61,562 bases of DNA, from the sequence record SRR31156797_768. One strand, 5' to 3'. Under the pieces are notes generated by a model, which worked only from the letters and a program-made list of their open reading frames with translations, was not told the DNA's origin and ran no database searches. Positions 9,748-26,873 of the stretch are shown here, in pieces (within the stretch, counting starts at the first letter, position 1; each line of letters begins with the position of its first letter). The position numbers were made by a program, and so were the translations under genes.

Positions 9748-9750
9748 ATC

Positions 9751-10710
9751 ATGCGGATACTCTTTATCGCATATCTGTTGCTTGCCCTTGTCGGCACTTC
9801 TGCCGCAGCATCGGAAATACTCCGTGTTTCCGGCCCGCCCATTGTGGAAAGTATTCCTTTGCTGGCTCTGGCGCAGGACGAACAACCATGGGAACAAGAC
9901 TTTGAAGTACAATTCATCCCCTGGCATTCGCCCGACATGCTTCGGGCAATGGTGGCCGGAGAGCAAGTTGATGCAGCAATAGTCACTACAGCTGCCGCAT
10001 CAACCCTCCGTAAAAAAGGGATTAATTGTCGAGTGGCCCTGTTACATAAAGCTCCAGTCTGGATCGTTTCTACAAGACAGGGAGCAGACACTCTTGAATC
10101 TTTGGAAGGGACACTGCTCTTTCCCTTTGGGCCGGGGGAAATGCCTGAGCTGTTTTACAGGGCCGCCATGGCAGGTAAGCAAAGCAAAGTCACCACCAGG
10201 CACACAGGCGGAGCACTGGAAGCTGTCAACCTTCTGCTGGCGGGCAAAGGTGACCACGCTATGCTCAGCGATCCCACAGCGTCCATCGCGATATTGCGAT
10301 CAAAAACCATGCAGGACAAAGGTGTCCCCTTGCTCGCAAAACGTGTGGATATGCGCACTGCTTGGGAACGCTCTTTTCCCGGGCATCATCTAGCCGCAAG
10401 CTGTATCGCCTTCTTTGGAGATAAGGCAGACAACGCCCCCACCATGCACGCATTCAACAGGGCATATATTCATGCCTGTTCATGGGTACGAGAACACCCC
10501 GATAAAGCTTTTGAACTTATTCAAAAAAGGTTCCCGGCTTTAGCCGCTCAAATTGAACAAGGAGCTCTCGAAAATCTCAATGTACAAAGCCTGACTGGAG
10601 AAAAAGCCCAAGCAGATGCCCTCTTCTTTCTCACCAAAATCCATGAGCTGTCACCCGCAGCTGTGGGAGGAACCATACCTGGAAATGATCTATTCGAGAT
10701 GAGACAATGA
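9751..10710 (+). CDS. ABC transporter substrate-binding protein (NitT/TauT-like)
   Basis: Signal peptide; PBP2-like pattern; co-transcribed with NitT/TauT-type permease and ATPase. Confidence 0.8.
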   Translation: MRILFIAYLLLALVGTSAAASEILRVSGPPIVESIPLLALAQDEQPWEQDFEVQFIPWHSPDMLRAMVAGEQVDAAIVTTAAASTLRKKGINCRVALLHKAPVWIVSTRQGADTLESLEGTLLFPFGPGEMPELFYRAAMAGKQSKVTTRHTGGALEAVNLLLAGKGDHAMLSDPTASIAILRSKTMQDKGVPLLAKRVDMRTAWERSFPGHHLAASCIAFFGDKADNAPTMHAFNRAYIHACSWVREHPDKAFELIQKRFPALAAQIEQGALENLNVQSLTGEKAQADALFFLTKIHELSPAAVGGTIPGNDLFEMRQ

Positions 10711-11474
10711 CCACGCATCAAGCAAAGAAAATCCCCCCCTATGCTTTCAATGTATTAGGGCTCATTCTCTTGACTCTCGGCTGGGAAGTAATGGCCCGAA
10801 TGCAGTCCGGACTGGTTGTAGCCAGTCCGGGCGAGACTCTCACTGCCCTGTTCGGACTCTTTGAGAATAGGACCTTTCTCTCGGTACATCTCTACCCCAC
10901 ACTGAAGCGCATCGGCATGGCTCTCTGTTTTGGTATCTGTAGTGGCATGATCCTGGGCATAATCGCCGGGTTGGTGGAACCAATTCGACTCATGCTGGCT
11001 CCGCTTCGCTGGATACTCACGAGTATTCCCGGCGTTATTATAGTGGTGGTCTTCATGCTCTGGTTTGGAATGGGCACGACCATGGTGGTCTGTATCACGG
11101 CCACTATGGTGGCTCCTGTCGTCTACGTTAACACGGCAGACGGTATGGCGAGCGTTGACCGTAATCTCCTAGAAATGTCCAAAGTCTATCATCTCCCCCT
11201 GCACATACGACTGACACGTATCTATGCAGTGGCTCTGGTGGGACCACTCCTTTCCAGTGTTGTCATTGCCACGGGTAATGGGATTCGACTGGTTGTCCTT
11301 GCAGAGATGCTCGGCGCCAATGAAGGTATCGGCCACGCATTGGCCATATCCAGGGCAAATCTCCAAACCGATGAACTTTACGCTCTGACCCTGCTGGCAA
11401 TGTTGGTTATCGGGGGTGTCGAAGTGCTGCTCCTCCGCCCTGCCCGTAAAGCCCTCCAAAGGAGACTGACATGA
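10707..11474 (+). CDS. ABC transporter permease (NitT/TauT/SsuC-like)
   Basis: Six TM segments; LWFGMG, VVLAEMLGANEGIG motifs. Confidence 0.9.
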   Translation: MTTHQAKKIPPYAFNVLGLILLTLGWEVMARMQSGLVVASPGETLTALFGLFENRTFLSVHLYPTLKRIGMALCFGICSGMILGIIAGLVEPIRLMLAPLRWILTSIPGVIIVVVFMLWFGMGTTMVVCITATMVAPVVYVNTADGMASVDRNLLEMSKVYHLPLHIRLTRIYAVALVGPLLSSVVIATGNGIRLVVLAEMLGANEGIGHALAISRANLQTDELYALTLLAMLVIGGVEVLLLRPARKALQRRLT

Positions 11475-12115
11475 ATCCCATCATAGAGTTGAGGAATATC
11501 CACAAAAAATTCGGGAACACTCCTGTCGTCACCAGATTCAACCTCACCGTGCAGCCGGGAGAAATGCTGGGAATGCTCGGCCCAAGCGGCATTGGCAAGT
11601 CCACAATCATGCGCATGATCGCCGGACTTGAGACCCCGGATTCGGGCTACATGCAAATAGACTCTTCTCACATCGGATACGTTTTCCAAGAGGCGCGTCT
11701 GCTCCCGTGGGATACGGCTTTGGACAATGTCATCCTCCCGTTACGCGCACAAGGACTGGACAAAAAGACAGCCACAGACCGCGCCAGACTCTATTTGAAA
11801 CGCATGGGACTTTTCAGATCAGAAAAGGCGTACCCGCATCAACTTTCCGGAGGCATGCGTCAAAGGGTGGCGCTGGCCCGAGCCTTTGCCATCAATCCAG
11901 ACATTCTGCTTCTGGACGAACCCTTCACCGGCTTGGACAAGCAGCTTAAAGAAAAAATGAAACTTTTGCTCAACACCCTTCTGGAAGCCAACCCAATTGC
12001 CGTCATACACGTCACTCATGATCCCTCGGAGCTTCTAGACCGAACAAGTCGCATCATTCATCTCGGCCCACAAACCCAAGAACAATGTAAGAAAACACAA
12101 AAGCCAAACATATAA
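11471..12115 (+). CDS. ABC transporter ATP-binding protein
   Basis: GPSGIGKST, LSGGMRQR, LLLDEPF, H-loop VTHD. Confidence 0.95.
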   Translation: MNPIIELRNIHKKFGNTPVVTRFNLTVQPGEMLGMLGPSGIGKSTIMRMIAGLETPDSGYMQIDSSHIGYVFQEARLLPWDTALDNVILPLRAQGLDKKTATDRARLYLKRMGLFRSEKAYPHQLSGGMRQRVALARAFAINPDILLLDEPFTGLDKQLKEKMKLLLNTLLEANPIAVIHVTHDPSELLDRTSRIIHLGPQTQEQCKKTQKPNI

Positions 12116-12141
12116 AAAGGCCCCTGCTTTTGCAGGGGCCT
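12114..12141. terminator. intrinsic terminator between convergent operons
   Basis: AAAAAGGCCCCTGC-TTTT-GCAGGGGCCT; the A-tract gives a U-tract on the minus strand. Confidence 0.75.
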
Positions 12142-12171
12142 CGGCTAACGAATCAAGGTCGGCTTCGCGGC

Positions 12172-13536
12172 CTAGAGTGGTCCAGTACTCATCACCGTCG
12201 ACAAATCCTCAATTTTCCCATTCTTGATACGGTAATCGTAGATATCTTCCATATCCTTATACACTTGGAAAACCTGGAAGAAACCATGCCAATGCGAATA
12301 GTCAGGACCATTCATTGCAGTCCCTTGACGCGCACGGCGACCGGTATGATGCCACAGGTAGTACATAAGCTCCTGGAATCCATCTTTCCATGGGTCTTTC
12401 TTGAGAAGCCCCTTTTCCTTAAGCTCTTTCTTCATGACAACGGCCTTGTCCCAGTATGCGTTGTACAAAGAAACGGCATTATCCAACAAATCACGCTGAT
12501 TGTTGGTATGCATGGTGCTGTGACAATTCGCGCAGACCTTGCGCATAAGCTTGTCACCCTTTTCACCATTTCCGCGTTCATTCTTGCGAAGTTCACTACG
12601 CTGATGCATCAGGTCCCACTTGAGACGCTCATTCACGTTATGCGTGGTGCTCAACTCCCCAATACCCGCGATATGGCAGACTGCACAGGTGGGAGCATCG
12701 TAATCGCCCGGTTCCCACGTATCGGGAGCGGCTTCGAAGTTCCACTTCTCTCCATGAGCAAGATACATCTGTCCATGCTTGGATTCATGGTAGATTTCAA
12801 TATTCGGATGATCCGGCCCAAGATGGCAGGAAGCACAGGCTTCTGGTTTGCGGGCTTCGGCCACCGAGAAGTTATGACGAGTATGACAAACGGTACATGT
12901 TCCGATGGAACCATCGGGATAACGGGTTCCAACGCCACCCGGCCAAGTATTGTTAATTGGCTTGTTATCCGCGCCAAGTTCAACCTGAGTTCCGTGACAC
13001 ATCTGACAACCTGAGGCACGTGCAGCCATATTCGGTCCAGAACCTTTTTCAAGCCCCAGAATCATGCCACCTTCATTGGTATACATAAGGGTCTGGAACT
13101 TGGCGACCTCCAAAACGGGACGACCGGAAAGATAAGCATGTCCAGATTTCAGGAACTGCTCGACCTCACGCGGATGACACTTGGAGCACGTCTTGGATGA
13201 AACCATCGGAGACGTATAGATATTCGTCCCCTTTAGCCCCTCGCACTGGCTCGCCATGGGAGAATCCTTTTCCACGACATGACAGTCGTAGCAGGAAACC
13301 GTGGCATGCCCCATTTTTCCATTTTTCCAATTCTCAATAATGCCCGGCGTCTTTTTTGAGTGACACTCGATGCACTGTTTGGCTTCTTCGGTATATCCCC
13401 GATGAACTATTAAAGCCTGCTTTTCCAACTCAATACCCTGCGTCTTTCGGGACTGCTCTTGCGCCAGTCCAACAACAGGCAGAAGGAGGCAGAGTAATCC
13501 GGCAATGAGTGCCGAAACACATCTTCTTTTCATCAT
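12172..13536 (-). CDS. haoA: octaheme cytochrome c, reductive hydroxylamine oxidoreductase family (epsilon-Hao-like)
   Basis: Sec signal; 8 CxxCH (CIECH, CYDCH, CSKCH, CQMCH, CTVCH, CASCH, CAVCH, CANCH); Hao-family motifs [27 protein letters not shown] and ESKHG; C-terminal GPDYSHWHG. Confidence 0.85.
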
Positions 13537-13542
13537 ATCTCC

Positions 13543-14121
13543 TTATTGTGGCTTGCTTTGAGCAAGCTCTTTCTTGCCATAGTATTTGTTGATTTCCGTG
13601 ATCATGTTCTTGTGACCAACATGTTCGTGGCAATCCACACACTGTTTATTCAACGTCCCCAACTGATATTGTTTATGTGCGATAATCCCCGAGGTGCGCA
13701 TTCCTTTCGGCGTCAAATCCTGATGACAACGACGACATGCGTTATCATAGGTGAATTCACGACGAGACCGCAGCCGCTCAACCCAATCATAGGTCGTTGG
13801 GTCAATCACCAGATTCAAAACAATATCGCGTGTACCCGTATAAGCCTTGGCTGTAACGTATTCCACAAAATCGCCATGTGGCAGATGACAATCCACACAT
13901 TGAGCCACAACCCCCTTGGCATTGGCTCCACCATGCGGTGCTTGTCTCCATGCGGTCCTGAAAGGCTTCATGACATGGCATGTCACGCAAAAGGTGTCGG
14001 TATTTGTCACCTCAATCATAAAACCCGAAGCAAGAACACAGACTGCGGTCAGAAAGACTCCCACAAGAACTCCAGGCCACCAACGTTTTCCCTTTGGGGA
14101 CGGCTTGTTATTAGGATGCAT
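13543..14121 (-). CDS. NapC/NirT/NrfH-family membrane-anchored tetraheme quinol dehydrogenase (CycB/cM552-like partner of Hao)
   Basis: N-terminal TM helix, TNTDTFCVTCHVM, CVDCHLP, CRRCH, CVDCH..VGH. Confidence 0.9.
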   Translation of the reverse strand: MHPNNKPSPKGKRWWPGVLVGVFLTAVCVLASGFMIEVTNTDTFCVTCHVMKPFRTAWRQAPHGGANAKGVVAQCVDCHLPHGDFVEYVTAKAYTGTRDIVLNLVIDPTTYDWVERLRSRREFTYDNACRRCHQDLTPKGMRTSGIIAHKQYQLGTLNKQCVDCHEHVGHKNMITEINKYYGKKELAQSKPQ

Positions 14122-14238
14122 CCATATATTCCTTCCTTACCGTTGAATCGTGAATGGAACAGTTTTCAAACCTCATGTGCAGCCGACCTTTACATCACAG
14201 ATGCAGTTGCCCACTCTATGAAACACGAGTATGAACAA

Positions 14239-14253
14239 ACAAAATCCATGCCA
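14239..14253 (-). promoter_or_regulatory. sigma-54 (-24/-12) promoter for the tetraheme-hao operon
   Basis: Minus strand TGGCATGGATTTTGT versus consensus TGGCACG-N4-TTGC; the -12 C is replaced by T. Confidence 0.65.
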
Positions 14254-14346
14254 ATTTTCAGGCACGAAGATTGAATCAAGACAACAGCTACTCATGCACA
14301 TTTTTCTAAAAAACCAAGTGTTTTTAAGGCTTTATTGCAAAGAAAT

Positions 14347-14384
14347 TGTCAGATTTAAATGACACTTGTCAGATTGACAGGACA
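14347..14384. promoter_or_regulatory. tandem palindromic enhancer (UAS) sites, TGTCA-N8-TGACA type
   Basis: TGTCAGATTTAAATGACA (14347-14364) and TGTCAGATTGACAGGACA (14367-14384), about 95-130 bp upstream of the sigma-54 site. Confidence 0.65.
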
Positions 14385-14428
14385 CCATGTCCGGCACAGC
14401 AAACATATGGACGCCAGCGGAGATTTTC

Positions 14429-16708
14429 ATGAATAGAGATGATCAGTATTCACTGAAGAAAAGATTGAAGTGGCCAATTGGGTTCGGCTTGCTTTGGTTC
14501 CTCTTTCTGCTCGCTCTGGCCGCATGGAGCGCGGAATCTGAACAAGGACACTTCCTCAATACCGCCGAGCACAAAGCCAAAACACTTTTTGAACAAATGG
14601 TTTTGATGCGTTCATGGAATACCGAGCATGACGGTGTCTTCGTCGAAAGTACGGAGATATCCCCACCCAATCCACACCTGAAACCCAAAGACAGGACTCT
14701 GACTACGGATGAAGGGAAGTTGTATTCTCGACTCAATCCTGCCTATATGACCCGCCAACTCGGAGTACTTTCTCAAAAAAAAGGTGATGCCGTTTTCCAC
14801 ATAGCGGGCTTGGAACCAATGAGTTCCAACAACAAGCCCGACGAATGGGAAAAGGAATGTCTGATAAGTTTCGAATGGGGAGGTACAGAACGTTTTCAGC
14901 TGGTGGACTCGGACGGGGGCAAACTGTTCAGATACATGGCCCCTTTGAAGATCGAAGAAAAATGTCTCTACTGCCATCCCAAATCTGCGGGAAGCAAAAA
15001 GACACTTGGCGGAATATCCGTTTCGTTCCCGGCCGACGCATTGATCTCAGCCCGCAAAGCCTCCGTTTCACGAATACATATCACTTTCACTCTGATAGGC
15101 CTTGTCGGCATGGCTGGAATCATGTTGTCGACATATCAGATACTCAGCAAACGGGATGAAGCCCAGAGGGCAAACGACGCCAAATCCATGTTCATTGCAA
15201 ACATGAGTCATGACATGAGGACACCTCTCAATGGCATCATGGGTATGACCGAACTGATCGAACGTCGCGGCTTGAATGACGAGCAGAAACGACATGTTCT
15301 CATGGTTCGCCAATCTGCCCGAAACCTACTGGAAATAGTAAATGATATCACAGAATTTTCACGACTTGAATCTGGACAACTTAAACTATCGGAATCCGTA
15401 TTCGACTTTAGGGCTGTATTGGATGAAATTCTGGAAATCTACATGTTTGCGGCAGAAGCCAAAGGATTAAAACTGCGTCGGTCCATATCGCCTGAAGTTC
15501 CTCGCCATCTGATCGGCGACGCCTTCCGTATCAAACAGATCATCGGCAACCTCGTCGGCAATGCCATCAAGTTCACTCGAGAAGGCGAAGTCGTTATTTT
15601 AGTGAAACACACTTCTTCAACACACACCACGAACAAAAAAACCGTCTATCTCGAAATCAGTGTAGAGGACACGGGTGTTGGTATCCCGGAAAAGGAATTT
15701 GAACGGATATTTCACAGTTTCCGCCAAATCGACGACTCATACGCGAAAAAACACGTCGGGACAGGATTGGGACTCTCGATCTGCAAACGTCTTGTAAAAA
15801 TGATGGGCGGAGGAATCCGGGTCGAAAGTACACAGGGGAAAGGGACTACATTCACTTTCAACATCAGGTTGCAGGTAGACGACAATTATTCACCCGAAAT
15901 CATCACAGAAGAAATTCAAACAACGACCGACACACCACAAAAACGTATCCTGCTGGTGGAAGACAATGATCTGAATCAATGCTTTTTCCTAAATGTTCTC
16001 AGGGACGCGGGACATTCCGTTATCGGGGTCTCTGAGAGTGATGAAGCACACAAACAATTGCAGAAAAATACATTCGACCTAATACTGATGGATATTCAAA
16101 TCCCCGGCATGGACGGATTGGAAATCAGCCGTCGCATCAGAAACAACACATTCGGTGCCGAGCCGAATATTCCCATTGTGGCAATCACGGCATCAGTCGG
16201 ACCGGACGTGGGAAAAAACTGTCGCAAGGCAGGTATGAACGGATATCTCACAAAACCGCTGTCCAGCAAAGATTTACTTCACGCCGTCAACACCTTCACT
16301 CGAACAACAAGGGATACATGGATGGAAAATGAATCTGATACACACGCAATGCAACCATCAACTGCACTTCTTGACCGAGAGGAAGCATTAAAATGCCTGG
16401 GTGGGAAACAGACGCTTTACACCAAATTACTCAACGCATTTCTTGAAGATGCCCCTCAAAAAATTTCCGCCCTCTCCCAAGCCGTGCACATGAATAATCA
16501 AGCAGAAGTGATTCGTCTGTCGCACGCCCTCAAAAACTCTGCATCGCTGATCCAAGCCAACCAGTTGGCCACTATGTCCAAAGAACTGGAAGAACAGGGA
16601 CACACTTCATCCCCGGAAGACTGGGTACCACTTTTGGAAAGAATCAAAGAGACATGTCAAAAAACACTCGCGGCCATCGACACAATTCGGGAGACATATC
16701 ATGGGTAA
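14429..16708 (+). CDS. hybrid sensor histidine kinase with periplasmic heme-c (DUF3365/Tll0287-like) domain, HisKA, HATPase, REC and Hpt
   Basis: TM-[LNPAYMTRQ...[21 protein letters not shown]]-[38 protein letters not shown] Hpt. ATG 14429 follows GGAG (alternative start 14387). Confidence 0.92.
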
Positions 16709-18056
16709 AATTCTCTTAGTAGACGACGAACCGCTTCAACACATTCTATTTCAAGATGTTGCCGACGATCAAAAACACGAATTCGTCGGGGCATTTACTC
16801 TGGAAGATGGCATACAGATTGCTCAGAAAACCCCCTTTGACATGGTCTTCCTTGATGTCATCCTGCCCGACGGCAACGGCATTGAAAACGTCCAGACATT
16901 CAAACAACTCCCCGGAAGCCCGGAAGTTGTCATCATCACCAGCAAGGGTGATATCTCCGGAGCCGCAAAGACTTTGGAAGACGGCGGAGGCGCATATCTT
17001 CTCAAGCCGTTATCCGTTGAACGCATTGAACAGTCCGTCAAGGAAACATTCCGTTTTCGCGAAGACAACCATGCTCTTGGTGAAACAACAATCTGTTGCG
17101 ACAATATTCTTGGTGGAACGCTCATTGAGGCGTGTAAGAAACAAACAGCCAAGGCGGCCCGTTCTTCAGTGTCCGTCATCATCTATGGAGAGACAGGCAC
17201 CGGCAAAGAACTGTTCGCCCGTGCCGTACATGACCATAGCCCCCGAGCCAAAGGACCATTCGTGGCGCTGGACTGTGCATCAATATCTCCATCTCTCATC
17301 GGTTCTCTTCTCTTCGGCCATGTCCGAGGAGCCTTTACCGGAGCAGATCGTGACAGGCAGGGCGTGGTAGCTATGGCAAACCACGGAACTCTTTTCCTGG
17401 ACGAAATCGGCGAGCTACCACCGGAACAACAGGCTTCACTCTTACGTATTCTTGAAACACACCGTTTCAGGCCCGTGGGTGGTCAACATGAATTGGAAAG
17501 TGATTTCCGACTCGTGGCCGCAACAAACCGCGATCTGGAAAAAATGGCAAAAGCTGGTAAATTTCGCAGCGACCTTCTCTACCGTCTTCAGGGGGTTGCC
17601 ATCAACCTTCCTCCCTTGAGAGACAGAATCGACGACATCAAAATTCTCGTTGAACATCGATTGCGGGAATCCGAATACAACGACAAACAATGCAGTAATG
17701 AATTTCTGACCACGCTTCAGGAATACGAATGGCCGGGAAATGTCCGTGAGCTTGTTCACACCGTAGACAGCGCACTGGCCGCAGCGCACGACAGCCCGGT
17801 AGTCTATGCTCGGCATCTTCCCGTGCAAATTCGCATCAAAGCTGCACAGGCTCATCTTGAAACAATACCCGCCCAATTGGTCCCAAACTCTCCGCTCTTC
17901 CCCACACTCAAGGAGTACCGTTTGAAAACCGACAGGGAGTATGTGCAAAACCTACTGGAACATACTGATGGGAACGTTAAAAAAGCAGCCGAGACCGCCG
18001 GGATATCGCGCGGATACTTATATGAAATGATGAAAAAGTGTGGATTGCAACGATAG
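16701..18056 (+). CDS. sigma-54-dependent response regulator (NtrC family)
   Basis: REC (LLVDD, FLDVILPDG), GETGTGKE, GAFTGA, LFLDEIG, WPGNVREL, Fis-type HTH. Confidence 0.95.
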   Translation: MGKILLVDDEPLQHILFQDVADDQKHEFVGAFTLEDGIQIAQKTPFDMVFLDVILPDGNGIENVQTFKQLPGSPEVVIITSKGDISGAAKTLEDGGGAYLLKPLSVERIEQSVKETFRFREDNHALGETTICCDNILGGTLIEACKKQTAKAARSSVSVIIYGETGTGKELFARAVHDHSPRAKGPFVALDCASISPSLIGSLLFGHVRGAFTGADRDRQGVVAMANHGTLFLDEIGELPPEQQASLLRILETHRFRPVGGQHELESDFRLVAATNRDLEKMAKAGKFRSDLLYRLQGVAINLPPLRDRIDDIKILVEHRLRESEYNDKQCSNEFLTTLQEYEWPGNVRELVHTVDSALAAAHDSPVVYARHLPVQIRIKAAQAHLETIPAQLVPNSPLFPTLKEYRLKTDREYVQNLLEHTDGNVKKAAETAGISRGYLYEMMKKCGLQR

Positions 18057-18074
18057 TTTCTTGAAAAACATCAC

Positions 18075-18112
18075 AAAAAAAGGCTTGGAGGATAGCTCCC
18101 CCAAGCCTTTTC
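18075..18112. terminator. bidirectional intrinsic terminator
   Basis: AAAAAAAGGCTTGG...CCAAGCCTTTT between the convergent regulator and napH. Confidence 0.75.
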
Positions 18113-18140
18113 CACACACAGGGGATTCATTGGCAGGAGA

Positions 18141-18950
18141 CTACTTCCGTACAGCAAATCCCTGGGAAAGCGCTTTACCATAATGTCTGCATTGGACCAC
18201 ACAATCACCGCAATTGGTGCATTCGGGATGAATCTGTCTTTCCCGAGGATCCAATCCATAAGGACAGCTCTTCATGCACGGTGACGGATTCACATCAGAA
18301 CAGATACATTTGATGAAATCGTACTTGACCCTGAAACGGGTCGGCAACACCATTCCGGCCACCTGAAGTAAAAGAGATTGCGGACAACAGTAGCGACACC
18401 AAACATGGCCACCCCCGGCCACATCAAGAGCCGACGCGATAGGCAACAGCCAAAAGCCAATCGGGATGGTGCCGGACAACCACAACGTCTGCATAGTCCG
18501 TGTGTACCAACCGGGCAGGGAAAGCTGATTCAACACAGGCGGAAATTCCATCGCGCCAACGCCTAAAACAGCAATACCGACCACAACGGCTTTAAAAAAC
18601 CCACCTTTCGACAATCGATCTCGCCTTTTCACAAAGGGCAATTTCTGGATCAAATCCGCAATCAGACCGTAAGGGCATATCCATGCGCAAAAGACGGGTC
18701 CCATTATCGCTGCAAGTGTCAATGACAGGATAGCACCCAAAGCCAATGTCGCAGACATATGCCATGTCGAAATCCAAACCTGCAAAGCAGCAAGAGGATC
18801 GGCAAACGGAATCCCAAAAATCTCAAGAGAAAGCAGGTTTCCGGTAACGATCCGAATATCGAACCCATTGATCCAGGGAATCGCTATGAACGAAAGCGCA
18901 ACAAGCAACTGGCAGACGCGACGAGCATGTTTTCTGTTCATTTCCATCAC
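18141..18950 (-). CDS. napH: NapH membrane ferredoxin-type quinol dehydrogenase subunit
   Basis: TM helices with FCAWICP and WCRYCCP motifs; C-terminal ferredoxin CTNCGDCVVQC. Confidence 0.92.
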   Translation of the reverse strand: MMEMNRKHARRVCQLLVALSFIAIPWINGFDIRIVTGNLLSLEIFGIPFADPLAALQVWISTWHMSATLALGAILSLTLAAIMGPVFCAWICPYGLIADLIQKLPFVKRRDRLSKGGFFKAVVVGIAVLGVGAMEFPPVLNQLSLPGWYTRTMQTLWLSGTIPIGFWLLPIASALDVAGGGHVWCRYCCPQSLLLQVAGMVLPTRFRVKYDFIKCICSDVNPSPCMKSCPYGLDPRERQIHPECTNCGDCVVQCRHYGKALSQGFAVRK

Positions 18951-19435
18951 GCTTTGCTCCTGACTTTTTCATGAATACGCTCACGTGGAATAAGAGTAAT
19001 CGCATGACGAGGACACACATAAAAACACACACCGCATCCAACACATTGGTCTGTGATAACAGGCAAATACCCATTTTCAAGAACAATTGCCGTATTGCGC
19101 ATGGGACATTTCTCAAAACAGGTCCGACAAATAACCGCACCCTGATATGTATAACAAAGGTTCTTATCCAAAAAAGCCGCGCCCATGTCTGCGTCCTTTT
19201 GCTCTGTTGCAGAGATGGCCCCTGTAGGGCAAGCCGGTCCGCAATGCATACACAAAAAACACGGGGCCTTTTCAGGATCGATATAGGGAGTTCCGGCTGT
19301 CAAAGGGTCGAGTCCCTCAGTGATCTTCAAGGCATCGAAACGACACGCTTCGACACATTTTCCGCAATGAATACAGTTCTGGAGAAATCGTTTTTTATCG
19401 CCCGCTCCAGGGGGTAGCAATTTCGCGGTGGGCAT
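18947..19435 (-). CDS. napG: NapG/MauM ferredoxin-type protein (no Tat leader)
   Basis: LLPPGA...FLQNCIHCGKCVEAC, PCFLCMHCGPACPTGA, CRTCFEKCP, CVGCGVCFYVCP. Confidence 0.88.
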   Translation of the reverse strand: MPTAKLLPPGAGDKKRFLQNCIHCGKCVEACRFDALKITEGLDPLTAGTPYIDPEKAPCFLCMHCGPACPTGAISATEQKDADMGAAFLDKNLCYTYQGAVICRTCFEKCPMRNTAIVLENGYLPVITDQCVGCGVCFYVCPRHAITLIPRERIHEKVRSKA

Positions 19436-19455
19436 GACTTCTTACCTTTTCCTGA

Positions 19456-19486
19456 GCCGGACCCCGGTGTGACGACGGGGTCCGGC
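19456..19486 (-). other. GC-rich intergenic hairpin between napD and napG
   Basis: GCCGGACCCCG...CGGGGTCCGGC, 11-bp stem with no U-tract. Confidence 0.55.
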
Positions 19487-19528
19487 ATAACAGGCTATTC
19501 AGGAGGTTACGCAGGATAGATGGAGACT

Positions 19529-19765
19529 CTATTCCTGTTCATCTTCAATATTGACGTATGTCGTATACACAGCAAGTACGCCGTCCATTTTCTCCAAACC
19601 ATCCAGACGTTTTTCTAACGCCGAGGAAGGCATTTCGCCGACAACGACAAGGTATTTTTCCTCATGCAGGCCATAAACCTGCAAATCGGCAGACTGCTCA
19701 ACTATAGCCCGCACCTCATCAGTCTTTTCTGTCAATGTGTGCAGAATGATGCCAGCAATAGCCAT
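19529..19765 (-). CDS. napD: NapD chaperone
   Basis: 78 aa, MAIAGIIL...YLVVVGE...GVLAVYTTY; immediately downstream of napA. Confidence 0.88.
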   Translation of the reverse strand: MAIAGIILHTLTEKTDEVRAIVEQSADLQVYGLHEEKYLVVVGEMPSSALEKRLDGLEKMDGVLAVYTTYVNIEDEQE

Positions 19766-19766
19766 A

Positions 19767-22010
19767 CTATACCTTCCTCACCTTGCAGGCGCAGATCTTG
19801 AATTCTGGCTGTTTGGAACCGGGATCAATGGCGTCAATCGTCAACTCGTTGATGAGTTTGTCCGGGTCAAACCACGGGACAAACACCAATCCGGGATTAC
19901 AAACATCGCCAACACGTGCCTGAAAGACCATGGAACCTCGTCTGGAGATCAGTTCCACATTATCACCGTTCTGCACCTTCAAATTGGCAGCATCCTGATC
20001 ATTGATTTCAACGTAGGCTTCCGGGAACGACTTATTGATCTCAGGAACCTTGTTGGTCATGGTTCCTGTATGCCAATGGTCGATTACACGGCCGGTTGTG
20101 AGAACGAACGGATATTCGGCATCAGCAGGCTCTGCCGGTGGCTTCTGCGGACGCATCCAGACAATGGCTCGACCGTCGGGGTTGCCGTAAAACCAATATT
20201 TATGCGGATAATCCTTGGGAATATTCGGGTCTTCACCTCGGACATAACGCCGCTTGGTGCCGGGATGATCTTCGGTCGGACACGGCCACAGTATACCTGA
20301 TCCCTTGCGAAGACGTTCACGGGTAATACCCATGAAATTATACGGCGTGATAGAGGAAACCTCACGCCATTCATTCCAGACATCCGTAGAATCTTTATAA
20401 GGAATGAGCTTGGGATCAACCCCGATACGCACAGCAAGATCAACAAGGATATTGACGGAATCACGGCACTCGCCGGGAGCATCAATAGCTTTTCCAACCA
20501 ACGCATACCGACGCTCCGAACACCCGAAAACACCTTCACGTTCCACCCAAAATGATGGAGGGAATACGACATCGGCAAATTCAAGCGTCTTGGCGTCACT
20601 GAAAGCCTCAATACAGGCCATGAAGCACTTCTTCATGCCCGGATTGAACTTATGCAAATTGGGTAAGGAATGAGCAGGGTTGGTACACAAAGACAGCAGA
20701 CAGTTGACCTTGCCGTCACTCATGGCCTTGAACAGGGCGGTGGTATGCAGCCCCGGCTTTGGATTCAAGGAATCCTGTGGAATACCCCACTGCTTTTCCA
20801 CCTGATTACGATGCGCCTTCTTGGCGATAACGCGACCTGCGGGAAGCAGATGGGAAAGACCACCCGTATCACGAACGCCACCACAAGCATTGGGTTGACC
20901 GGTCAATGAGAACGGAGAGGAACCGGGTTTGCCGATCTTGCCTGTAATCAGATGAAGGTTACTGATAAGATTGTTGGCCCAGACACCACGAGTGCGCTGG
21001 TTTGCCCCCATGCACCACAGAGAAAGCGAGGCCGGAGACTCACCGAACATACGTCCAGCAGTCCAGATATCTTCTGCAGAAACGCCGACAGTAGCAGCGA
21101 CCTTTTCGGGAGTGTATTCTTCGAGGAACTGTAGATATTCCTCAAGAGAATGCGATGCTTTGGCGTTGTCCTTGAAATGGACATACTTACTTATAAACCG
21201 AGGATCATCCAACTCTTCCTTAAAGATGACATACGCCATGGCGTTGAGCAGTGCGAGGTCGTTACCCGCCGTGACCCTAAGGTGCAAGTCGGCGATACGG
21301 GCGGTGTTGGTCGTACGAGGATCAACCACGATAACCTTGACCTTGGGATCATTCTGCTTGCGGGCAGCGATACGTCTGAAAAGCACGGGGTGACATTCCG
21401 AAGTGTTGGAACCAAAGATAAAAAAGCAACTCGTTGCGTCAATATCTTCGAAACAACCACATGGCTCATCCTTGCCGAAAGTGGTCACATAGCCACCGAC
21501 TGCGGAAGCCATGCACAGGCGCGGATTGCCTTCCACGTTATTCGATTTCAAACCGGCCTTGAATACCTTGCTGGCCAGATAGGTTTCTTCAGTCAAAGCC
21601 TGACCGGAACCATAGTAGCCTACTGATTCCGGGCCAAACTGATCAATACTCTCGCGGAACTTGCGGGCCGTCAAATCAAGTGCCTCGTCCCAGGAAGCCG
21701 GTTCCAACTTCCCATTGCGGCGAATAAGTGGCTTGGTCACGCGCTCCTTGGCGTAAATGACAGGTGCCAACAACGCACCCTTAAGGCACAATAAACCTTT
21801 ATTATGATTGTTGGGATCACCCTTGACGGTGACGACCTTGCCGTCTTTGACTCCGACCATGACACCACAGCCTGTGCCGCAATAGCGGCAAACCGCTTTA
21901 CTCCAAGTGTCAACGCCTTCACCGGCCTTGGCCTTGGTCGGAATGCCAAGAGCAGTGAGTGCTGACAGTGCAGCGATTTGTTTGATAAAATTTCTTCTGG
22001 AAAGGCTCAT
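19767..22010 (-). CDS. napA: periplasmic nitrate reductase catalytic subunit
   Basis: Tat signal SRRNFIK; CRYCGTGC...C [4Fe-4S]; Mo ligand RLCMASA; SLTGQPNACG; TTGR..HWHTGTMT; SKQPEFKICA. Confidence 0.96.
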   Translation of the reverse strand: MSLSRRNFIKQIAALSALTALGIPTKAKAGEGVDTWSKAVCRYCGTGCGVMVGVKDGKVVTVKGDPNNHNKGLLCLKGALLAPVIYAKERVTKPLIRRNGKLEPASWDEALDLTARKFRESIDQFGPESVGYYGSGQALTEETYLASKVFKAGLKSNNVEGNPRLCMASAVGGYVTTFGKDEPCGCFEDIDATSCFFIFGSNTSECHPVLFRRIAARKQNDPKVKVIVVDPRTTNTARIADLHLRVTAGNDLALLNAMAYVIFKEELDDPRFISKYVHFKDNAKASHSLEEYLQFLEEYTPEKVAATVGVSAEDIWTAGRMFGESPASLSLWCMGANQRTRGVWANNLISNLHLITGKIGKPGSSPFSLTGQPNACGGVRDTGGLSHLLPAGRVIAKKAHRNQVEKQWGIPQDSLNPKPGLHTTALFKAMSDGKVNCLLSLCTNPAHSLPNLHKFNPGMKKCFMACIEAFSDAKTLEFADVVFPPSFWVEREGVFGCSERRYALVGKAIDAPGECRDSVNILVDLAVRIGVDPKLIPYKDSTDVWNEWREVSSITPYNFMGITRERLRKGSGILWPCPTEDHPGTKRRYVRGEDPNIPKDYPHKYWFYGNPDGRAIVWMRPQKPPAEPADAEYPFVLTTGRVIDHWHTGTMTNKVPEINKSFPEAYVEINDQDAANLKVQNGDNVELISRRGSMVFQARVGDVCNPGLVFVPWFDPDKLINELTIDAIDPGSKQPEFKICACKVRKV

Positions 22011-22034
22011 TTCCGCCTCCTTATATATCCTGTA

Positions 22035-22496
22035 TTAGTTCACAGTCTTTTTGGACTCGGTTTTCTGAAATGCTTCGTGATGAATGGAGTTCTGATGATA
22101 CGGATGGCAGTCGTTGCACTGCGGACGCAGACCGAATTTCTCTTCCATTCTATTCACGGCCGGATCATGACACTTACGACAGACCTTATCCGGGTCTGGA
22201 TCGGCCGCGAATTCAACAGCACCCTTTCCGTCTGGTTGGCCATGACAGACAAAACATTTGACGAGCAGCATGCCATGCTTGCCCTCGTACCAGTCCTGAG
22301 CAATTTTCGGCGTCGTTTTCAAATGACAGGCATAGCAATCGCCAGCCATCTTCGACTCATCAGTCAAATGCTTGGCTTCACACCGAGTCTCAGGAAATGC
22401 GGCATGAACATATACATACATGCCGACGGCGACGACAACGACTGCGAGTCCCGCCACCGCCGACCATTTTCCGATCTTACTTTTAAACATTGCCAT
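22035..22496 (-). CDS. napM: tetraheme cytochrome c NapM
   Basis: 4 CxxCH (CYACH, CFVCH, CRKCH, CNDCH); position between napC and napA as in the Desulfovibrio napCMADGH operon. Confidence 0.85.
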   Translation of the reverse strand: MAMFKSKIGKWSAVAGLAVVVVAVGMYVYVHAAFPETRCEAKHLTDESKMAGDCYACHLKTTPKIAQDWYEGKHGMLLVKCFVCHGQPDGKGAVEFAADPDPDKVCRKCHDPAVNRMEEKFGLRPQCNDCHPYHQNSIHHEAFQKTESKKTVN

Positions 22497-23068
22497 TACA
22501 TCCCCTCCTCTTGTGCGGCCATCTTGGCTGCGAATTCGGCATTCTGCACGTATCGCCTGTCGAATATGGGAAGATGGGCCATGTTATGATGGCAGTCAGC
22601 ACATCCTTTGCCTGTCTGACCGTTAATTCCCAAATACGCATCATGGGCGAGCTTGCCCTCGCGAGACAACTCTTCACCCTTGTAGGTCTTTTTCAGATCC
22701 TCATGACAGGCACGACAACTGTCGTCAGGCACAAACCGCCTTGCGGACAGCTGCAATTCCCTTCGATAAAAATTATCCGGATCGCCAAAATGATGAACAA
22801 TCATGTCCTTAATCCCCAAGTACGCCTTCAAGGACACATAACGCGGACCAAGCTCCGCAGGCATGTGACATTGACGGCATTCGATCGGTTTTTTGTCCTT
22901 ATCAACAGCATGTGATGAAAGCTTCAATTCAGCCTGATGCTGTTCCATTTCATGACAGGACACGCAAAAACCGGTCGTGGAGGTCTTCTCGAACGCCACT
23001 GCGCCGACGACTGCAATCGCCAGGACACAGCCGAACGAGAGGACAATAGTCCTTACCCCTCTTTTCAT
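22496..23068 (-). CDS. napC: NapC tetraheme quinol dehydrogenase
   Basis: TM anchor; TSTTGFCVSCHEM, CRQCHMP, CRACH, CADCH. Confidence 0.92.
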   Translation of the reverse strand: MKRGVRTIVLSFGCVLAIAVVGAVAFEKTSTTGFCVSCHEMEQHQAELKLSSHAVDKDKKPIECRQCHMPAELGPRYVSLKAYLGIKDMIVHHFGDPDNFYRRELQLSARRFVPDDSCRACHEDLKKTYKGEELSREGKLAHDAYLGINGQTGKGCADCHHNMAHLPIFDRRYVQNAEFAAKMAAQEEGM

Positions 23069-23149
23069 GACTCCTCCTCAATTACCGGTATGTGTTTCAT
23101 AATATCTCCCTTCCAACACGACATATCATTCTGTCGCAAGATTCATCTT

Positions 23150-23164
23150 CCAAATTACATGCCA
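23150..23164 (-). promoter_or_regulatory. sigma-54 (-24/-12) promoter for napCMADGH
   Basis: Minus strand TGGCATGTAATTTGG; the -12 C is replaced by G. Confidence 0.6.
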
Positions 23165-23247
23165 AGAAAAACAAATGTTCGAAGCACCTCAAAAGCCTGT
23201 ATTTTCAGTAAATAAATATCAAATATTCAGACTTCAAAGGTAGGATG

Positions 23248-23306
23248 TGTCATGTATTAAAGACGGTGTATTCAGAAGTAAACGCGAGTGTCATATATTT
23301 ATGACT
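23248..23306. promoter_or_regulatory. two TGTCA-N8-TGACA-type enhancer sites upstream of nap
   Basis: TGTCATGTATTAAAGACG (23248-23265) and TGTCATATATTTATGACT (23289-23306); same motif as at 14347-14384. Confidence 0.6.
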
Positions 23307-23399
23307 AAATATCCCAACCATCATCGTAGCCATGATTTGAAGTTTTCACCCCGATGGTCTCAATTCTTCCACATTGAACGACATCTCGACTCACCACAC

Positions 23400-23440
23400 A
23401 AAAAAAGGCCCCTGAACACAATCATGTTCAGGAGCCTTTT
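23400..23440 (-). terminator. intrinsic terminator downstream of the siroheme protein gene
   Basis: AAAAAAAGGCCCCTGAACA...TGTTCAGGAGCCTTTT. Confidence 0.75.
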
Positions 23441-23459
23441 AGGATTTGATAAATATCTT

Positions 23460-24116
23460 TTATTTCAGGGCATCAGCAACGACTTCGTGGCCCAATCGGC
23501 GTACCATCATCCCAATGCGTTCACCTTTCTTAGCGGTATCACGGTAATAAACCAGTGCTTTTGCGATGATAGCCAATGCTTCATCGTCCGAAACCCCTTT
23601 GGCGAGACGCAACCCGGGGGCAGCACGGTGGCGAGCAGAACCGCCGTAAATGACATTCCAGCCCTTGGCAATTCCCACAAGACCGATGTCACGCACAAAG
23701 CTCAAGCTACAGGCCATGCCACAACCCGAAACGCCACTCTTTACCTTGAAAGGATACGGGCCATTGGCTTTGACCACCTCAAGCAGACGGTCGCCCATCT
23801 CACGGGTATTCTGCTGACCATATTTACACAATTCACCGCCCGGACAAACAGAAACACCGGGGGGACACTTGGGAATCGACACGCCGAGAGTGGACACGAT
23901 TTCGTCAAGTTTTTCCTTGGGAACTCCTTCCAAATTCATACGCTGGCCGGTGGTGGCGCGAAGCGTCACACCGGGATACGTCTCCATGATTTCCATGACA
24001 CTTCTGGTCATACCGGGAGTCAGCAACCCCTGATTAAGACAAAGACGGAGGGCATAGGTACCGTCCTTCCGCTCTATGGGCATAACAGTCACTGGTTCAG
24101 AAACTATAGAAGTCAT
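23460..24116 (-). CDS. small monomeric siroheme-[4Fe-4S] nitrite/sulfite reductase (Desulfovibrio alSiR-like)
   Basis: 218 aa; GLLTP, TTGQRM ferredoxin-like half domain; CPGGELC (Cx5C) and KSGVSGCGMAC (Cx3C) ligands; RDIGLVG. Confidence 0.85.
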   Translation of the reverse strand: MTSIVSEPVTVMPIERKDGTYALRLCLNQGLLTPGMTRSVMEIMETYPGVTLRATTGQRMNLEGVPKEKLDEIVSTLGVSIPKCPPGVSVCPGGELCKYGQQNTREMGDRLLEVVKANGPYPFKVKSGVSGCGMACSLSFVRDIGLVGIAKGWNVIYGGSARHRAAPGLRLAKGVSDDEALAIIAKALVYYRDTAKKGERIGMMVRRLGHEVVADALK

Positions 24117-24173
24117 TAAAATCTCCTTCCTCTAAATGGTATTTAATCCCCTGACCCAAACAACGACTTCACC

Positions 24174-24217
24174 AATATAACGAAACCGGTCTCTAGCCAG
24201 AGTGAAGATAATCAAAA
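24174..24217 (-). promoter_or_regulatory. CRP/FNR-family (HcpR-like) site with -10 box, class II geometry
   Basis: GAGTGA-AGATAA-TCAAAA (24200-24217; 9/12 to TTGTGA-N6-TCACAA). Minus-strand TATATT at 24179-24174 places the site centre at -41.5. Confidence 0.55.
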
Positions 24218-24494
24218 TTTAAATGAATCACCTTTCAAACAAAGTCCTCACAAAACGTGCATGCGGAGTGTACGCAAATCTCCGAGCACTTCTAGACCGT
24301 TTTACATATTTTTAACGGTATCAAAAAGAAACCGCCTCGCAAAAAGTACGCAAACACACCACTTTTGCATTCAGCCAAAAACACGAGCCTTGACATGACT
24401 ATGTTTTTTAAAATAGTAGCCGTTTAGTGTTACTATTTCTAATTTCGTGTTAATAAAGGTATTTTATACCCTTGTTAACAAAGGAGGGTATCCA

Positions 24495-25835
24495 ATGTCT
24501 GGATGCACACCAAAGTCGTCACCGGTCGTTACACCGGTCGACCTTTCTTCAGTCCACCCGAACAAGGAGGGAACAATGAAACTGATTGAAGGCGTCATGT
24601 ACCAAAACAACGCACCCAAGGGGGTCGACCCGGACAGCATCTACTTTGTCCAAGTTGATGCCACAAAGTGTGAAGCCTGCGGTTCATGCGAAGAAGTTTG
24701 CGCCACTGGTGCAATCCAATCCATTAATGAAGACGGTATTCGTCAAGTTGTTGATCCGGCAGCCTGCATGAACTGCGGACAGTGCCTGACCAGTTGTCCG
24801 TATGGCGCCATCTACGAAGGCGTTTCATATGTCGACGAAGTCTTTGAAAAACTTAAAGACCCTGACACTATCGTCGTGTCCATGCCCGCTCCGGCCGTTC
24901 GCTATGGTCTGGGTGAGTGCTTTGGCGCTGCGACCGGTACCTATGTCGGCGGGAAAATGCACACGGCATTACGCCAGCTCGGCTTCAACTACATCTGGGA
25001 TAACGAGTTCACCGCTGATGTGACCATCATGGAAGAAGGCACCGAGCTCATTCAGCGTGTTCAGGAACAGGGCAAGGAAGGCGCTCGCCCCCTGCCTCAG
25101 TTCACGTCCTGCTGTCCCGGTTGGGTCAAGTTCACCGAAACCTTCTACCCGGACCTGATGCCGAATCTGTCCAGTTGTAAATCACCCATCGGCATGTTGG
25201 GACCTCTGGCCAAGACATACGGCGCACATGAAACGCACACCGAAGCCAAGAAGATCTACACGGTGTCCATCATGCCCTGTATCGCCAAGAAATATGAAGG
25301 CCTCAGACCGGAACTGGCCGACAGTGGCTTCCGGGACACTGATGCTACCATCAATACCCGCGAACTGGCGTACATGATCAAGACTGCGGGCATCAACTTC
25401 AACAGCCTGCCAGATCAGAAACCCGATGCGGTTCTGGGCGACTCCACCGGCGCAGCCACCATCTTCGGCACCAGCGGCGGCGTCATGGAAGCGGCCCTCA
25501 GGCTGGCCTATGAAGTGCTTTCCGGCAAGAAACTGAGCGACCCGAATATCAAGGTCGTCCGCACCCATGAAGGCATCAACACCGCTGACGTCAAGGTACC
25601 CGGTTTCGGCACAGTAAAAATCGCCGTAGCAAGTGGACTCGATAACGCCGCCAAGCTCTGCGATGAAGTCAGGGCCGGCAAATCGCCATACCACTTCATT
25701 GAAATCATGACCTGTCCCGGCGGTTGTGTGAACGGTGGAGGTCAGCCTCTTGATCCAGAAATTCAGGCCTCCCTGTTCAGAAGCACGGTAGCCCAGATTA
25801 ATAAACGCTTCCGAGCACGTAAGGTCACGGCATAA
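24495..25835 (+). CDS. hydA: periplasmic [FeFe]-hydrogenase large subunit
   Basis: 2x[4Fe-4S] ferredoxin motifs; H-cluster L1 TSCCPGW, L2 MPCIAKKYE, L3 EIMTCPGGCVNGGGQP. Two in-frame starts with AAGGAGG (24495, 24576). Confidence 0.97.
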   Translation: MSGCTPKSSPVVTPVDLSSVHPNKEGTMKLIEGVMYQNNAPKGVDPDSIYFVQVDATKCEACGSCEEVCATGAIQSINEDGIRQVVDPAACMNCGQCLTSCPYGAIYEGVSYVDEVFEKLKDPDTIVVSMPAPAVRYGLGECFGAATGTYVGGKMHTALRQLGFNYIWDNEFTADVTIMEEGTELIQRVQEQGKEGARPLPQFTSCCPGWVKFTETFYPDLMPNLSSCKSPIGMLGPLAKTYGAHETHTEAKKIYTVSIMPCIAKKYEGLRPELADSGFRDTDATINTRELAYMIKTAGINFNSLPDQKPDAVLGDSTGAATIFGTSGGVMEAALRLAYEVLSGKKLSDPNIKVVRTHEGINTADVKVPGFGTVKIAVASGLDNAAKLCDEVRAGKSPYHFIEIMTCPGGCVNGGGQPLDPEIQASLFRSTVAQINKRFRARKVTA

Positions 25836-25848
25836 GGAGAAACAAGAT

Positions 25849-26187
25849 ATGATAATGAACAGACGCGGTTTCATCAAAGCCTGCGGTATCATGACCGGAT
25901 ACGCCGTACTTGGGATGAACATCACAAAAGAAGCTGTAGCCAGCTCCATGAGTTTCGTAGGACTGCGCCAAAAGTCCGTATATGATGCTGACGCCAACTC
26001 CAAGATTTACGCGATCAGGAAGTCTCAGGACAATCCCATGATCAAGAAAATCTACGACAAGAAAGACGGCTTCCTGCACGAAGGCCCGTGTGGACACATG
26101 TCCCACCACCTACTGCACACGCACTATATTGATCGTAGCGCAAAGATTGCCGTCCTCAAAGATAAAGGCTTCAAGTTGAACTTCTAA
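25849..26187 (+). CDS. hydB: [FeFe]-hydrogenase small subunit with Tat signal
   Basis: NRRGFIK leader; RQKSVY..D...RKSQDNP..KKIY...SHHLLHTHY. Confidence 0.95.
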   Translation: MIMNRRGFIKACGIMTGYAVLGMNITKEAVASSMSFVGLRQKSVYDADANSKIYAIRKSQDNPMIKKIYDKKDGFLHEGPCGHMSHHLLHTHYIDRSAKIAVLKDKGFKLNF

Positions 26188-26432
26188 AACGCCAACAGCG
26201 TTAACCTGCGGCTAGGAGACCTCTGATCCAAGGGCACACGCTTCTTTTTCTCATCTTTTTTTCCCACACCATTTGACGCCTCTCTTGAGAACAGTCCCTT
26301 TCCTTGGGCATTCATTTTGTCTGGATTTCGTAATACTATTTTAAAAAAGTTATACACTAAGTGCAACTTTTTCTTGATTCGTATCCTTTTTTCTCTTATC
26401 ACTTCTTTCCAGAACACCTCCAATCGGAGAAA

Positions 26433-26856: not shown

Positions 26857-26873
26857 CCAAGGGAGTAAGGGCC

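Follow-up and report, generated by a model that had tools for sequence, protein, structure and literature searches.

The question raised by the locus described here is what reduces the nitrite formed by a periplasmic nitrate reductase when no NrfA is encoded beside it. The window, which is the whole stretch of DNA analysed (61,562 nucleotides of sequence record SRR31156797_768), carries a strain-variable island of approximately 11.3 kb, at about 12090-23408, and the nearest genome found, G001, does not have this block. The island contains a napCMADGH operon, a second operon for a NapC/NrfH-type tetrahaem cytochrome and an octahaem cytochrome of the Hao family, and a two-component system. The answer favoured here is that Nap reduces nitrate and that Hao replaces NrfA for nitrite, the block probably being a laterally acquired 11.3-kb respiratory cassette for the conversion of nitrate to ammonium. 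This is a reading of sequence, and its parts are not equally firm. The Nap half is read with high confidence, and the role of Hao as a reductase of nitrite, hydroxylamine or nitric oxide (NO) with good confidence; that ammonium is formed and that energy is conserved are points of moderate confidence.

An original prediction, made from the letters of the window without database searches, had named the genes of this region. All of them were recovered on the strands that it gave, both in the list of open reading frames (ORFs) and in Pfam and NCBIfam scans. The ten genes of the island are as follows.

12172-13536, minus strand: octahaem cytochrome of the Hao family (epsilon-Hao-like), 454 aa, with a Sec signal peptide and eight CxxCH motifs.
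13543-14121, minus strand: NapC/NrfH-type membrane tetrahaem quinol dehydrogenase, PF03264 at E 1.5e-30, four CxxCH motifs.
14387-16708, plus strand: NrfS-like hybrid histidine kinase with a Tll0287-like domain (one CxxCH, Cys193) and HisKA, HATPase, REC and Hpt domains.
16701-18056, plus strand: NrfR-like sigma-54-dependent response regulator, its gene overlapping that of the kinase.
18141-18950, minus strand: napH, NapH/MauN family.
18947-19435, minus strand: napG, polyferredoxin, NapG at E 1.1e-32.
19529-19765, minus strand: napD, PF03927.
19767-22010, minus strand: napA of the monomeric Desulfovibrio type, NapA at 661 bits.
22035-22496, minus strand: napM-like periplasmic tetrahaem cytochrome, four CxxCH motifs.
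22496-23068, minus strand: napC, tetrahaem quinol dehydrogenase, four CxxCH motifs.

The gene order napC-M-A-D-G-H, together with a monomeric NapA, is that of a Desulfovibrio-type cluster. NapA matches the solved monomeric Desulfovibrio enzymes 2jio and 2nap over its full length (residues 34-746, 1078 bits), and no napB was found among the island ORFs with Pfam. Homologues of the napM-like gene adjoin napA in four related loci (L006, L078, L081 and L083). The nap order described for Desulfovibrio desulfuricans 27774 and Desulfovibrio vulgaris is that of the island (PMC5701242, PMC6456213).

The octahaem cytochrome matches the Pfam family Multi-haem_cyto (PF13447) at E 2.1e-33, and all of its significant matches among solved structures are to HAO-family proteins. 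The best of these is 4qo5, at E 4e-45 with the single sequence and 1.1e-66 with a 25-sequence profile, followed by Nitrosomonas HAO, Kuenenia HAOr (E 1.6e-24) and then anammox HAO and HDH. NrfA structures are matched only at E 6e-5, over approximately 65 residues. An assignment to NrfA was rejected, as neither this nor the three tetrahaem proteins of the island has a CxxCK motif and the octahaem is not matched by PF02335 or TIGR03152. The structure 4qo5, which we take to be the HAO-like cytochrome IhOCC of Ignicoccus hospitalis, aligns with the N-terminal, central and C-terminal parts of the octahaem, but in local stretches only; it has Trp at the position of Tyr413 and Phe at that of Trp416. 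The octahaem was modelled poorly by AlphaFold2 (mean pLDDT 53.7); with Foldseek the model gave only HAO-family matches, at a TM score of about 0.3, and it was too poor for mapping of the cross-link site. A look-up in the ESM Atlas gave nothing beyond the family size.

An assignment to the oxidative HAO was also rejected, there being no Tyr at the aligned cross-link site and a shorter C-terminal domain. By our own count, oxidative HAO is approximately 16 residues longer between the last block aligned by hhalign and the cross-link site. A Nitrospirota genome supplied the reference for this site, the oxidative HAO of L088, which matches NeHAO at E 1.6e-255. Its cross-link Tyr is Tyr491 of the precursor, within the motif GGWTYTEGW, and is presumably Tyr467 of the mature protein. 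When the tails are aligned pairwise with BLOSUM62, this Tyr comes to lie opposite His415 of the octahaem in five of six settings, at low scores. The original prediction had given the C-terminus as GPDYSHWHG, with Trp in place of the cross-linking Tyr. The motif is as it stated, no Tyr is at the site, and the published alignment does have Trp there; our own alignments place His415 at this position instead. Trp416 follows one residue later, and neither register puts a Tyr at the cross-link position. Because HMMER profile alignments to NeHAO end at approximately residue 374-377, the location of the site depends on the low-scoring pairwise alignments and on the published statement. The C-terminal 75 residues gave no phmmer match to solved structures at E<=10. 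Among 135 genomes of the phylum around G153 no oxidative HAO was found, and oxidative HAO was found in the phylum around G155.

Asp242-His243 aligns to residues 267-268 of NeHAO (4fas), which we take to be the distal catalytic pair, and is kept in all 121 family sequences. Two published marks of epsilon-Hao, attributed to Haase et al., are that Trp takes the place of the cross-link Tyr of nitrifiers and that a Met precedes this Trp by eight residues (PMC8940962). This Met-x7-Trp signature is present in the octahaem, Met408 and Trp416 each being found in 121 of the 121 sequences. The gene for the tetrahaem cytochrome lies 6 nt upstream of the octahaem gene, and the best NCBIfam match of its product is NrfH, at 89 bits and under the cut-off. 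Judged by the signature residues and the partner gene, the octahaem probably belongs to the reductive, non-cross-linked (epsilon-Hao-type) branch of the HAO family.

The statement in the original prediction that no nrfA is present in the window was borne out, with no CxxCK pentahaem or other N-oxide reductase found among the 56 window ORFs that were scanned with Pfam. A search for nrfHA and hcp had also been proposed there and was run on the nearest genome. In G001, NrfA was not found (best scores 18.5 bits with TIGR03152 and 21 bits with PF02335), and hcp was found, at 768 bits, as part of the species core genome. The only NrfA-family match in G001, a weak one (L001, G001:C1:2871885-2875241), is a 429-aa lipoprotein with eight CxxCH and no CxxCK. 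Downstream of its gene are one for a small multihaem protein and one for a membrane protein resembling cytochrome b; this is a putative redox complex and not NrfA.

The presence of hcp bears on how far the octahaem would take nitrite. The enzyme may stop before ammonium, releasing either NO, in the manner of Kuenenia HAOr, or free hydroxylamine, in the manner of a reverse hydroxylamine:ubiquinone redox module (reverse-HURM), with Hcp or other enzymes finishing the reduction. The HAOr of Kuenenia stuttgartiensis (kustc0458, PDB 6h5l) is likewise a reductive HAO without the cross-link Tyr, and it reduces nitrite to NO, not ammonium, with a dihaem cytochrome and not an NrfH-type protein as its partner, as described in PMC8042395. 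For Nautilia, in which a reverse-HURM combining Nap and Hao has been proposed, hydroxylamine is put forward as a free intermediate (PMC3701875). A product short of ammonium is nevertheless judged improbable for the island enzyme: in vitro reduction of hydroxylamine as well as of nitrite is stated for epsilon-Hao enzymes (PMC8042395), the best match among solved structures is 4qo5 and not HAOr, and the island has no NO reductase.

The two regulatory genes between the operons provide a separate line of evidence. In the kinase, two membrane helices flank the Tll0287-like domain with its one CxxCH, which indicates a periplasmic c-type haem sensor. The domain is present in 14 of 14 kinases sampled from other hao loci, and the single CxxCH is found in a conserved context in all 15 when the island kinase is included. 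At approximately two dozen related loci the kinase gene is divergent from the NrfH-like-hao genes. Likewise, in D. vulgaris and D. desulfuricans 27774 the sigma-54-dependent pair NrfS-NrfR is divergent from nrfHA and mediates induction by nitrite, and NrfR sites and sigma-54 determinants are reported at the nap promoter also (PMC5701242).

Genome G069 of the Desulfovibrionaceae, which has both nrfA and napA, allows a direct comparison. At its locus L090, nrfA-nrfH is divergent from a gene for a 773-aa kinase, followed by a sigma-54 regulator, and this pair was called NrfSR by position, as in PMC5701242. The G069 kinase has an architecture identical to that of the island kinase, with 29% identity over the full length (E 1e-97) and the CxxCH aligned. 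The only G069 match to the island regulator at E<=1e-90 is the regulator beside nrfHA, with 47% identity. In the same-genus genome G121 there is no homologue of the kinase or regulator within approximately 7 kb of nrfHA, so that G069 is the single genome on which the comparison with NrfSR is based.

Candidate control sequences are found upstream of both operons.

14348-14383: two tandem 16-bp GTC-N10-GAC sites (at 14348 and 14368, 20 nt apart), candidate operators upstream of the hao operon.
14240-14253, minus strand: sigma-54 -24/-12-like element, TGGCATGGATTTTG, upstream of the tetrahaem-hao operon.
23249-23305: two 16-bp GTC-N10-GAC sites (at 23249 and 23290, 41 nt apart), candidate operators upstream of napC.
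23151-23164, minus strand: sigma-54 -24/-12-like element, TGGCATGTAATTTG, upstream of napC.

Published LurR sites are of 16 bp, for example GTCCGCTTTTTCAGAC, and the NrfR consensus is described as very similar (PMC6456213); the GTC-N10-GAC sites match these in length and in their half-sites. Eight of the nine such sites in the 61.5-kb window are inside the island. Both predicted -24/-12 elements have the form TGGCATG-N4-TTG and are positioned on the correct strand, downstream of each pair of sites. The arrangement recurs in L006, from a metagenome-assembled genome of the Desulfovibrionaceae, where site pairs and a -24/-12 element are present at both promoters, the nap sites are again 41 nt apart, and the equivalent of the napC element is TGGCACGCATGTTGG. 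In L012, a site pair and an element are present at the hao promoter. The nrfH promoter of G069 has GTCATATTTTTATGAA and GTCTTATTTATCTGAT, separated by roughly two turns of the helix, and by our own reading the nap site GTCATATATTTATGAC of the window matches GTCATATTTTTATGAA at 14 of 16 positions. Taken together, the NrfSR-type pair, the operators and the divergent position suggest that the hao operon occupies the place of nrfHA and, apparently, its control.

The distribution of Hao and NrfA was compared in a sample of 151 Desulfovibrionaceae genomes, with NrfA defined as PF02335 at E<=1e-20. A Hao of at least 70% identity is present in 4 of these and a second class, of 41-47% identity and like a core paralogue in G001, in 42. 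The first two Hao classes are found in 46 genomes and NrfA in 79, with both in only 2 and neither in 28; NapA is present in 20. Both states, Hao and NrfA, occur in different genomes of nine genera (g1, g4, g22, g40, g42, g45, g60, g69 and g70). A third, partial class of Hao-like proteins matches only across approximately residues 77-310, with 35-44% identity. It is the sole Hao-like match in G030, G071, G081, G091 and G131, and four of these five also have NrfA, in contrast to the two closer classes.

Beyond this sample, a genome scan found 79 loci with relatives of the octahaem at 63-82% identity, in Desulfovibrionaceae, Desulfobacterales, Desulfuromonadales, Thermodesulfatator and Nitrospirota. 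The Desulfovibrionaceae records among them are titled Pseudodesulfovibrio, Maridesulfovibrio and Halodesulfovibrio, and the closest named protein, 91% identical and labelled 'multiheme c-type cytochrome', is from Pseudodesulfovibrio. An NrfH-like gene is directly upstream of hao in all 69 loci that have at least 700 nt of upstream DNA. The gene napA is present in the retrieved DNA at 15 of 78 loci, and at 8 of the 26 that have at least 9 kb on both sides. The nap clusters near hao are of two types, napCMADGH (L006, L078, L081 and L083) and a napMA..GH type. The public names of several close family members (P0009, P0042, P0072, P0075, P0101 and P0126) are 'beta-ketoacyl-ACP synthase' or 'ammonia-forming cytochrome c nitrite reductase subunit c552', and neither name looks right for a HAO-family octahaem whose haem motifs are all CxxCH.

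These hosts are mostly bacteria of the sulfur cycle, and the closest solved relative, 4qo5, is deposited only as a 'hypothetical multiheme protein'. Multihaem reductases are often promiscuous. The octahaem could on these grounds act on sulfite or another sulfur oxyanion, its link with nap being one of regulatory convenience or chance. This is very unlikely in view of regulators and operators of the NrfSR type, the near-exclusive distribution with NrfA, and a linkage to Nap that is repeated in two cluster types.

A number of observations weigh against a nitrate-to-ammonium cassette, among them the product of HAOr given above. The exclusivity of Hao and NrfA has a Fisher p of 1.8e-16, a figure that exaggerates the strength of the result, the genomes being related to one another. 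NrfA is found in 18 of the 20 NapA-positive genomes and a close Hao in none of them, which makes the combination of Nap with this Hao a rare one among Desulfovibrionaceae. The strain may also have nrfHA, otr or another nitrite reductase elsewhere in its genome. At the promoters, the -24/-12 pattern was derived from the same two sites that it finds, and a generic sigma-54 consensus with two mismatches allowed shows no enrichment in the window, which has 34 matches where 37.7 would be expected. The cross-link alignment is weak, hhalign against two oxidative HAOs ending at residue 398. A Tyr (Tyr413) is present two to three residues upstream of the site in 119 of 121 family sequences, with Phe in the other two. 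Lastly, 63 of the 78 related loci show no nap in the retrieved DNA, and the four sampled Desulfovibrionaceae genomes with a close Hao orthologue (at least 70% identity) have no NapA. With so many hao loci lacking nap, the Hao module would often work apart from nitrate reduction and may be mainly a defence.

A purely defensive role would have the NrfH-like/Hao pair removing toxic nitrite, NO or hydroxylamine; beside nap it would protect the cell from the product of Nap, and no ammonification supporting growth would take place. In addition to the loci and genomes without nap, this is favoured by G001, which keeps a core Hao paralogue with its own NrfH-like gene and no Nap, and by NrfHA itself, which is described as a protection from nitrite in those Desulfovibrio that do not reduce nitrate (PMC5701242). 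A respiratory chain, on the other hand, would account for the quinol-oxidising membrane partner and for control shared with a complete nap operon, and one enzyme can serve detoxification and respiration together. Defence without respiration is regarded as rather unlikely on this balance, although less so than either of the other alternatives. The G001 paralogue consists of an NrfH-like tetrahaem and an octahaem Hao (L002, G001:C1:2606691-2610845; ORFs 804-1376 and 1243-2775). Its Hao is 46% identical to that of the island and has APDYAWWHG at the C-terminus, and a sensor-kinase-like ORF follows.

The comparison with G001 also defines the island. This genome shares 54% of sampled 31-mers with the window. 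The flanks at 8000-12088 and 23382-27000 are 99% and 98% identical to adjacent G001 DNA, nothing between them matches, and the original description of the region as a self-contained island holds, a conspecific genome lacking exactly this block. Alignment of the junctions places the breakpoints near 12089/12090 and 23408/23409, so that the insert lies between a convergent gene for an ABC-transporter ATPase and the gene for a sirohaem protein. The left junction is inside the 3' end of the ATPase gene (11471-12115), the part concerned being window 12089-12115, and the last codons and stop of that gene are therefore island-derived, unlike those in G001. The sirohaem gene had been included in the unit by the original prediction. 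It falls outside, as the unit stops at approximately 23408 and this gene, with a strong terminator of its own, is found in G001 also. The features at the edges and between the operons are the following.

12117-12142, minus strand: terminator hairpin 3' of the octahaem gene, with a T tail and a stem of 11 pairs, 8 of them GC.
18076-18113: hairpin between the convergent regulator and nap operons, with a 17-pair stem.
23403-23440: strong terminator hairpin of the sirohaem gene, outside the unit.
23460-24116, minus strand: NIR_SIR sirohaem/[4Fe-4S] protein of 218 aa, a core gene of the flank that is present in G001.

The size of the sirohaem protein recalls the low-molecular-weight assimilatory-type sulfite reductase of Desulfovibrio.

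No NapA orthologue was found in G001, the best match being a 36%-identical TGA-containing frame that resembles formate dehydrogenase. NapA is absent from all four sampled genomes of the genus. None of these has a Hao of at least 70% identity, and only G001 has any Hao at all, the 46%-identical paralogue. Since the four genomes have no NapA and at most a paralogous Hao, a gain by the island-bearing strain is the simpler history. DNA of the same genus is only approximately 66% identical to the window. The L006 genome has all ten of these genes, in this order, with a Hao 82% identical to that of the island; in a tblastx comparison, homology between L006 and the window ends at the ends of the island, and the L006 flanks are unmatched in the window. 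No integrase or transposase is present in the island, all ten of its ORFs being accounted for with Pfam, and no tRNA gene was found in the window. Long flanking repeats were not found, only a 19-nt imperfect repeat at the terminator arms. The composition of the island is not deviant, with a GC content of approximately 0.49, like that of the flanks.

The original inference of a nitrate-ammonification module in the Desulfovibrionaceae is supported by the NrfSR-type pair, by the operators and -24/-12 elements that the two operons share, by the near-exclusive distribution of Hao and NrfA, and by the lack of NrfA in G001. The proposed pathway is as follows. From homology, NapC would oxidise menaquinol and pass electrons through the tetrahaem NapM to the monomeric NapA, reducing nitrate to nitrite, with NapGH and NapD in accessory roles. 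The second, NapC/NrfH-type tetrahaem would also oxidise menaquinol and feed the soluble periplasmic, non-cross-linked octahaem. The octahaem in turn would reduce nitrite, with hydroxylamine and NO as further probable substrates and ammonium as the most likely product, standing where NrfHA stands in other Desulfovibrionaceae. The haem-c kinase and the sigma-54 activator are predicted to switch on both operons through the tandem 16-bp sites and the -24/-12 promoters. Joint control of this kind, suggested by the DNA motifs and the synteny, could let nitrite be consumed at the rate at which it is produced.

The system was put forward in the original prediction as the best candidate for something undescribed, which is too strong, as clusters of Nap with Hao in ammonifiers lacking NrfA have been published (PMC3701875, PMC5276818). 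Between them, the accounts in PMC3701875, PMC5276818 and PMC8940962 cover the enzyme family, the NrfH-type partner and the Nap plus Hao route in such organisms. The epsilon-Hao (HaoA) of the Campylobacterota (Nautilia, Caminibacter, Campylobacter fetus and Campylobacter curvus) likewise has no cross-link Tyr and has the Met-x7-Trp signature (PMC8042395, PMC8940962). It is likewise reported to adjoin a tetrahaem quinol dehydrogenase and to occur with Nap in organisms without NrfA. The island differs in its host, a sulfate reducer of the Desulfovibrionaceae, in its NrfSR-type haem-c sensor, and in being strain-specific.

Thermosulfurimonas dismutans and Dissulfuribacter thermophilus are nitrate ammonifiers of the Thermodesulfobacteriota without NrfA, with a Hao-like cytochrome in the nap cluster and lateral transfer proposed (PMC5276818). 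The cluster described there is one of 11 genes, which include NrfD-type and ferredoxin subunits but lack a small tetrahaem partner. The island has napCMADGH, a different type of nap, together with a NapC/NrfH-type partner and a dedicated two-component system. Compared with D. desulfuricans 27774 and D. vulgaris, the island has an all-CxxCH octahaem Hao in place of the pentahaem CxxCK NrfA, and its three units adjoin one another within a single 11-kb block.

In a limited literature search, no description of Nap plus Hao in Desulfovibrionaceae or Pseudodesulfovibrio was found. Three aspects are apparently new within the scope of that search, no description of them having been found: the occurrence of the Desulfovibrionaceae form on a strain-specific island, the conserved association of an NrfSR-type haem-c sensor system with the Hao module, and the exclusivity of Hao and NrfA within the Desulfovibrionaceae.

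A broader interpretation can be offered tentatively. The haem-c sensor and NrfH-like/Hao may form an old, portable nitrite-response module of the Thermodesulfobacteriota that has, in Desulfovibrionaceae, been swapped repeatedly with nrfHA under the same type of NrfSR regulator and operator, and that was here fused to napCMADGH as a plug-in cassette. If this is true, a single transfer could turn a sulfate reducer that does not reduce nitrate into a nitrate ammonifier, and the island-bearing strain and its island-less conspecific would be a natural gain-of-function pair. As G001 makes clear, some strains do not carry the 11.3-kb block, and paired strains could thus be compared. Both target promoters have recognisable candidate operators, and the regulator is served by what appears to be a periplasmic c-type haem sensor.

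When nitrate is used against souring and corrosion by sulfate reducers, the outcome is set by their nitrate respiration and their survival of nitrite. Surveys of nitrate ammonification count nrfA, and also onr, as in PMC10716430. If Hao does the work of NrfA in approximately a third of the Desulfovibrionaceae (the 46 of 151 genomes above) and in many Desulfobacterales and Desulfuromonadales, surveys of nrfA undercount the ammonifiers and nitrite-detoxifiers among sulfate reducers.

The DNA around the island contains other redox and metal-related genes. Directly beside it are the large and small subunits of an [FeFe] hydrogenase (24447-26187), followed by radical-SAM and GTPase maturases (HydG/HydE/HydF-like) to 31312; the hydrogenase is a possible local source of electrons. 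A dense metal-uptake region at 31393-51408 has a periplasmic binding protein, three DUF4198 proteins, a ZnuA/ABC-3/ATPase set and DUF6162, as well as FeoB, a Fur-family regulator, an MntP-like exporter and a TonB-dependent receptor. Another TonB receptor, together with ExbB/ExbD/TonB, is encoded at 3740-8712. At 55606-58385, a nickel-insertion protein (PF01969, 473 bits), a PP-loop ATPase and an AIR-carboxylase-like protein are encoded by adjacent genes, a trio that resembles what we take to be LarC/LarE/LarB, for the nickel-pincer cofactor of lactate racemase.

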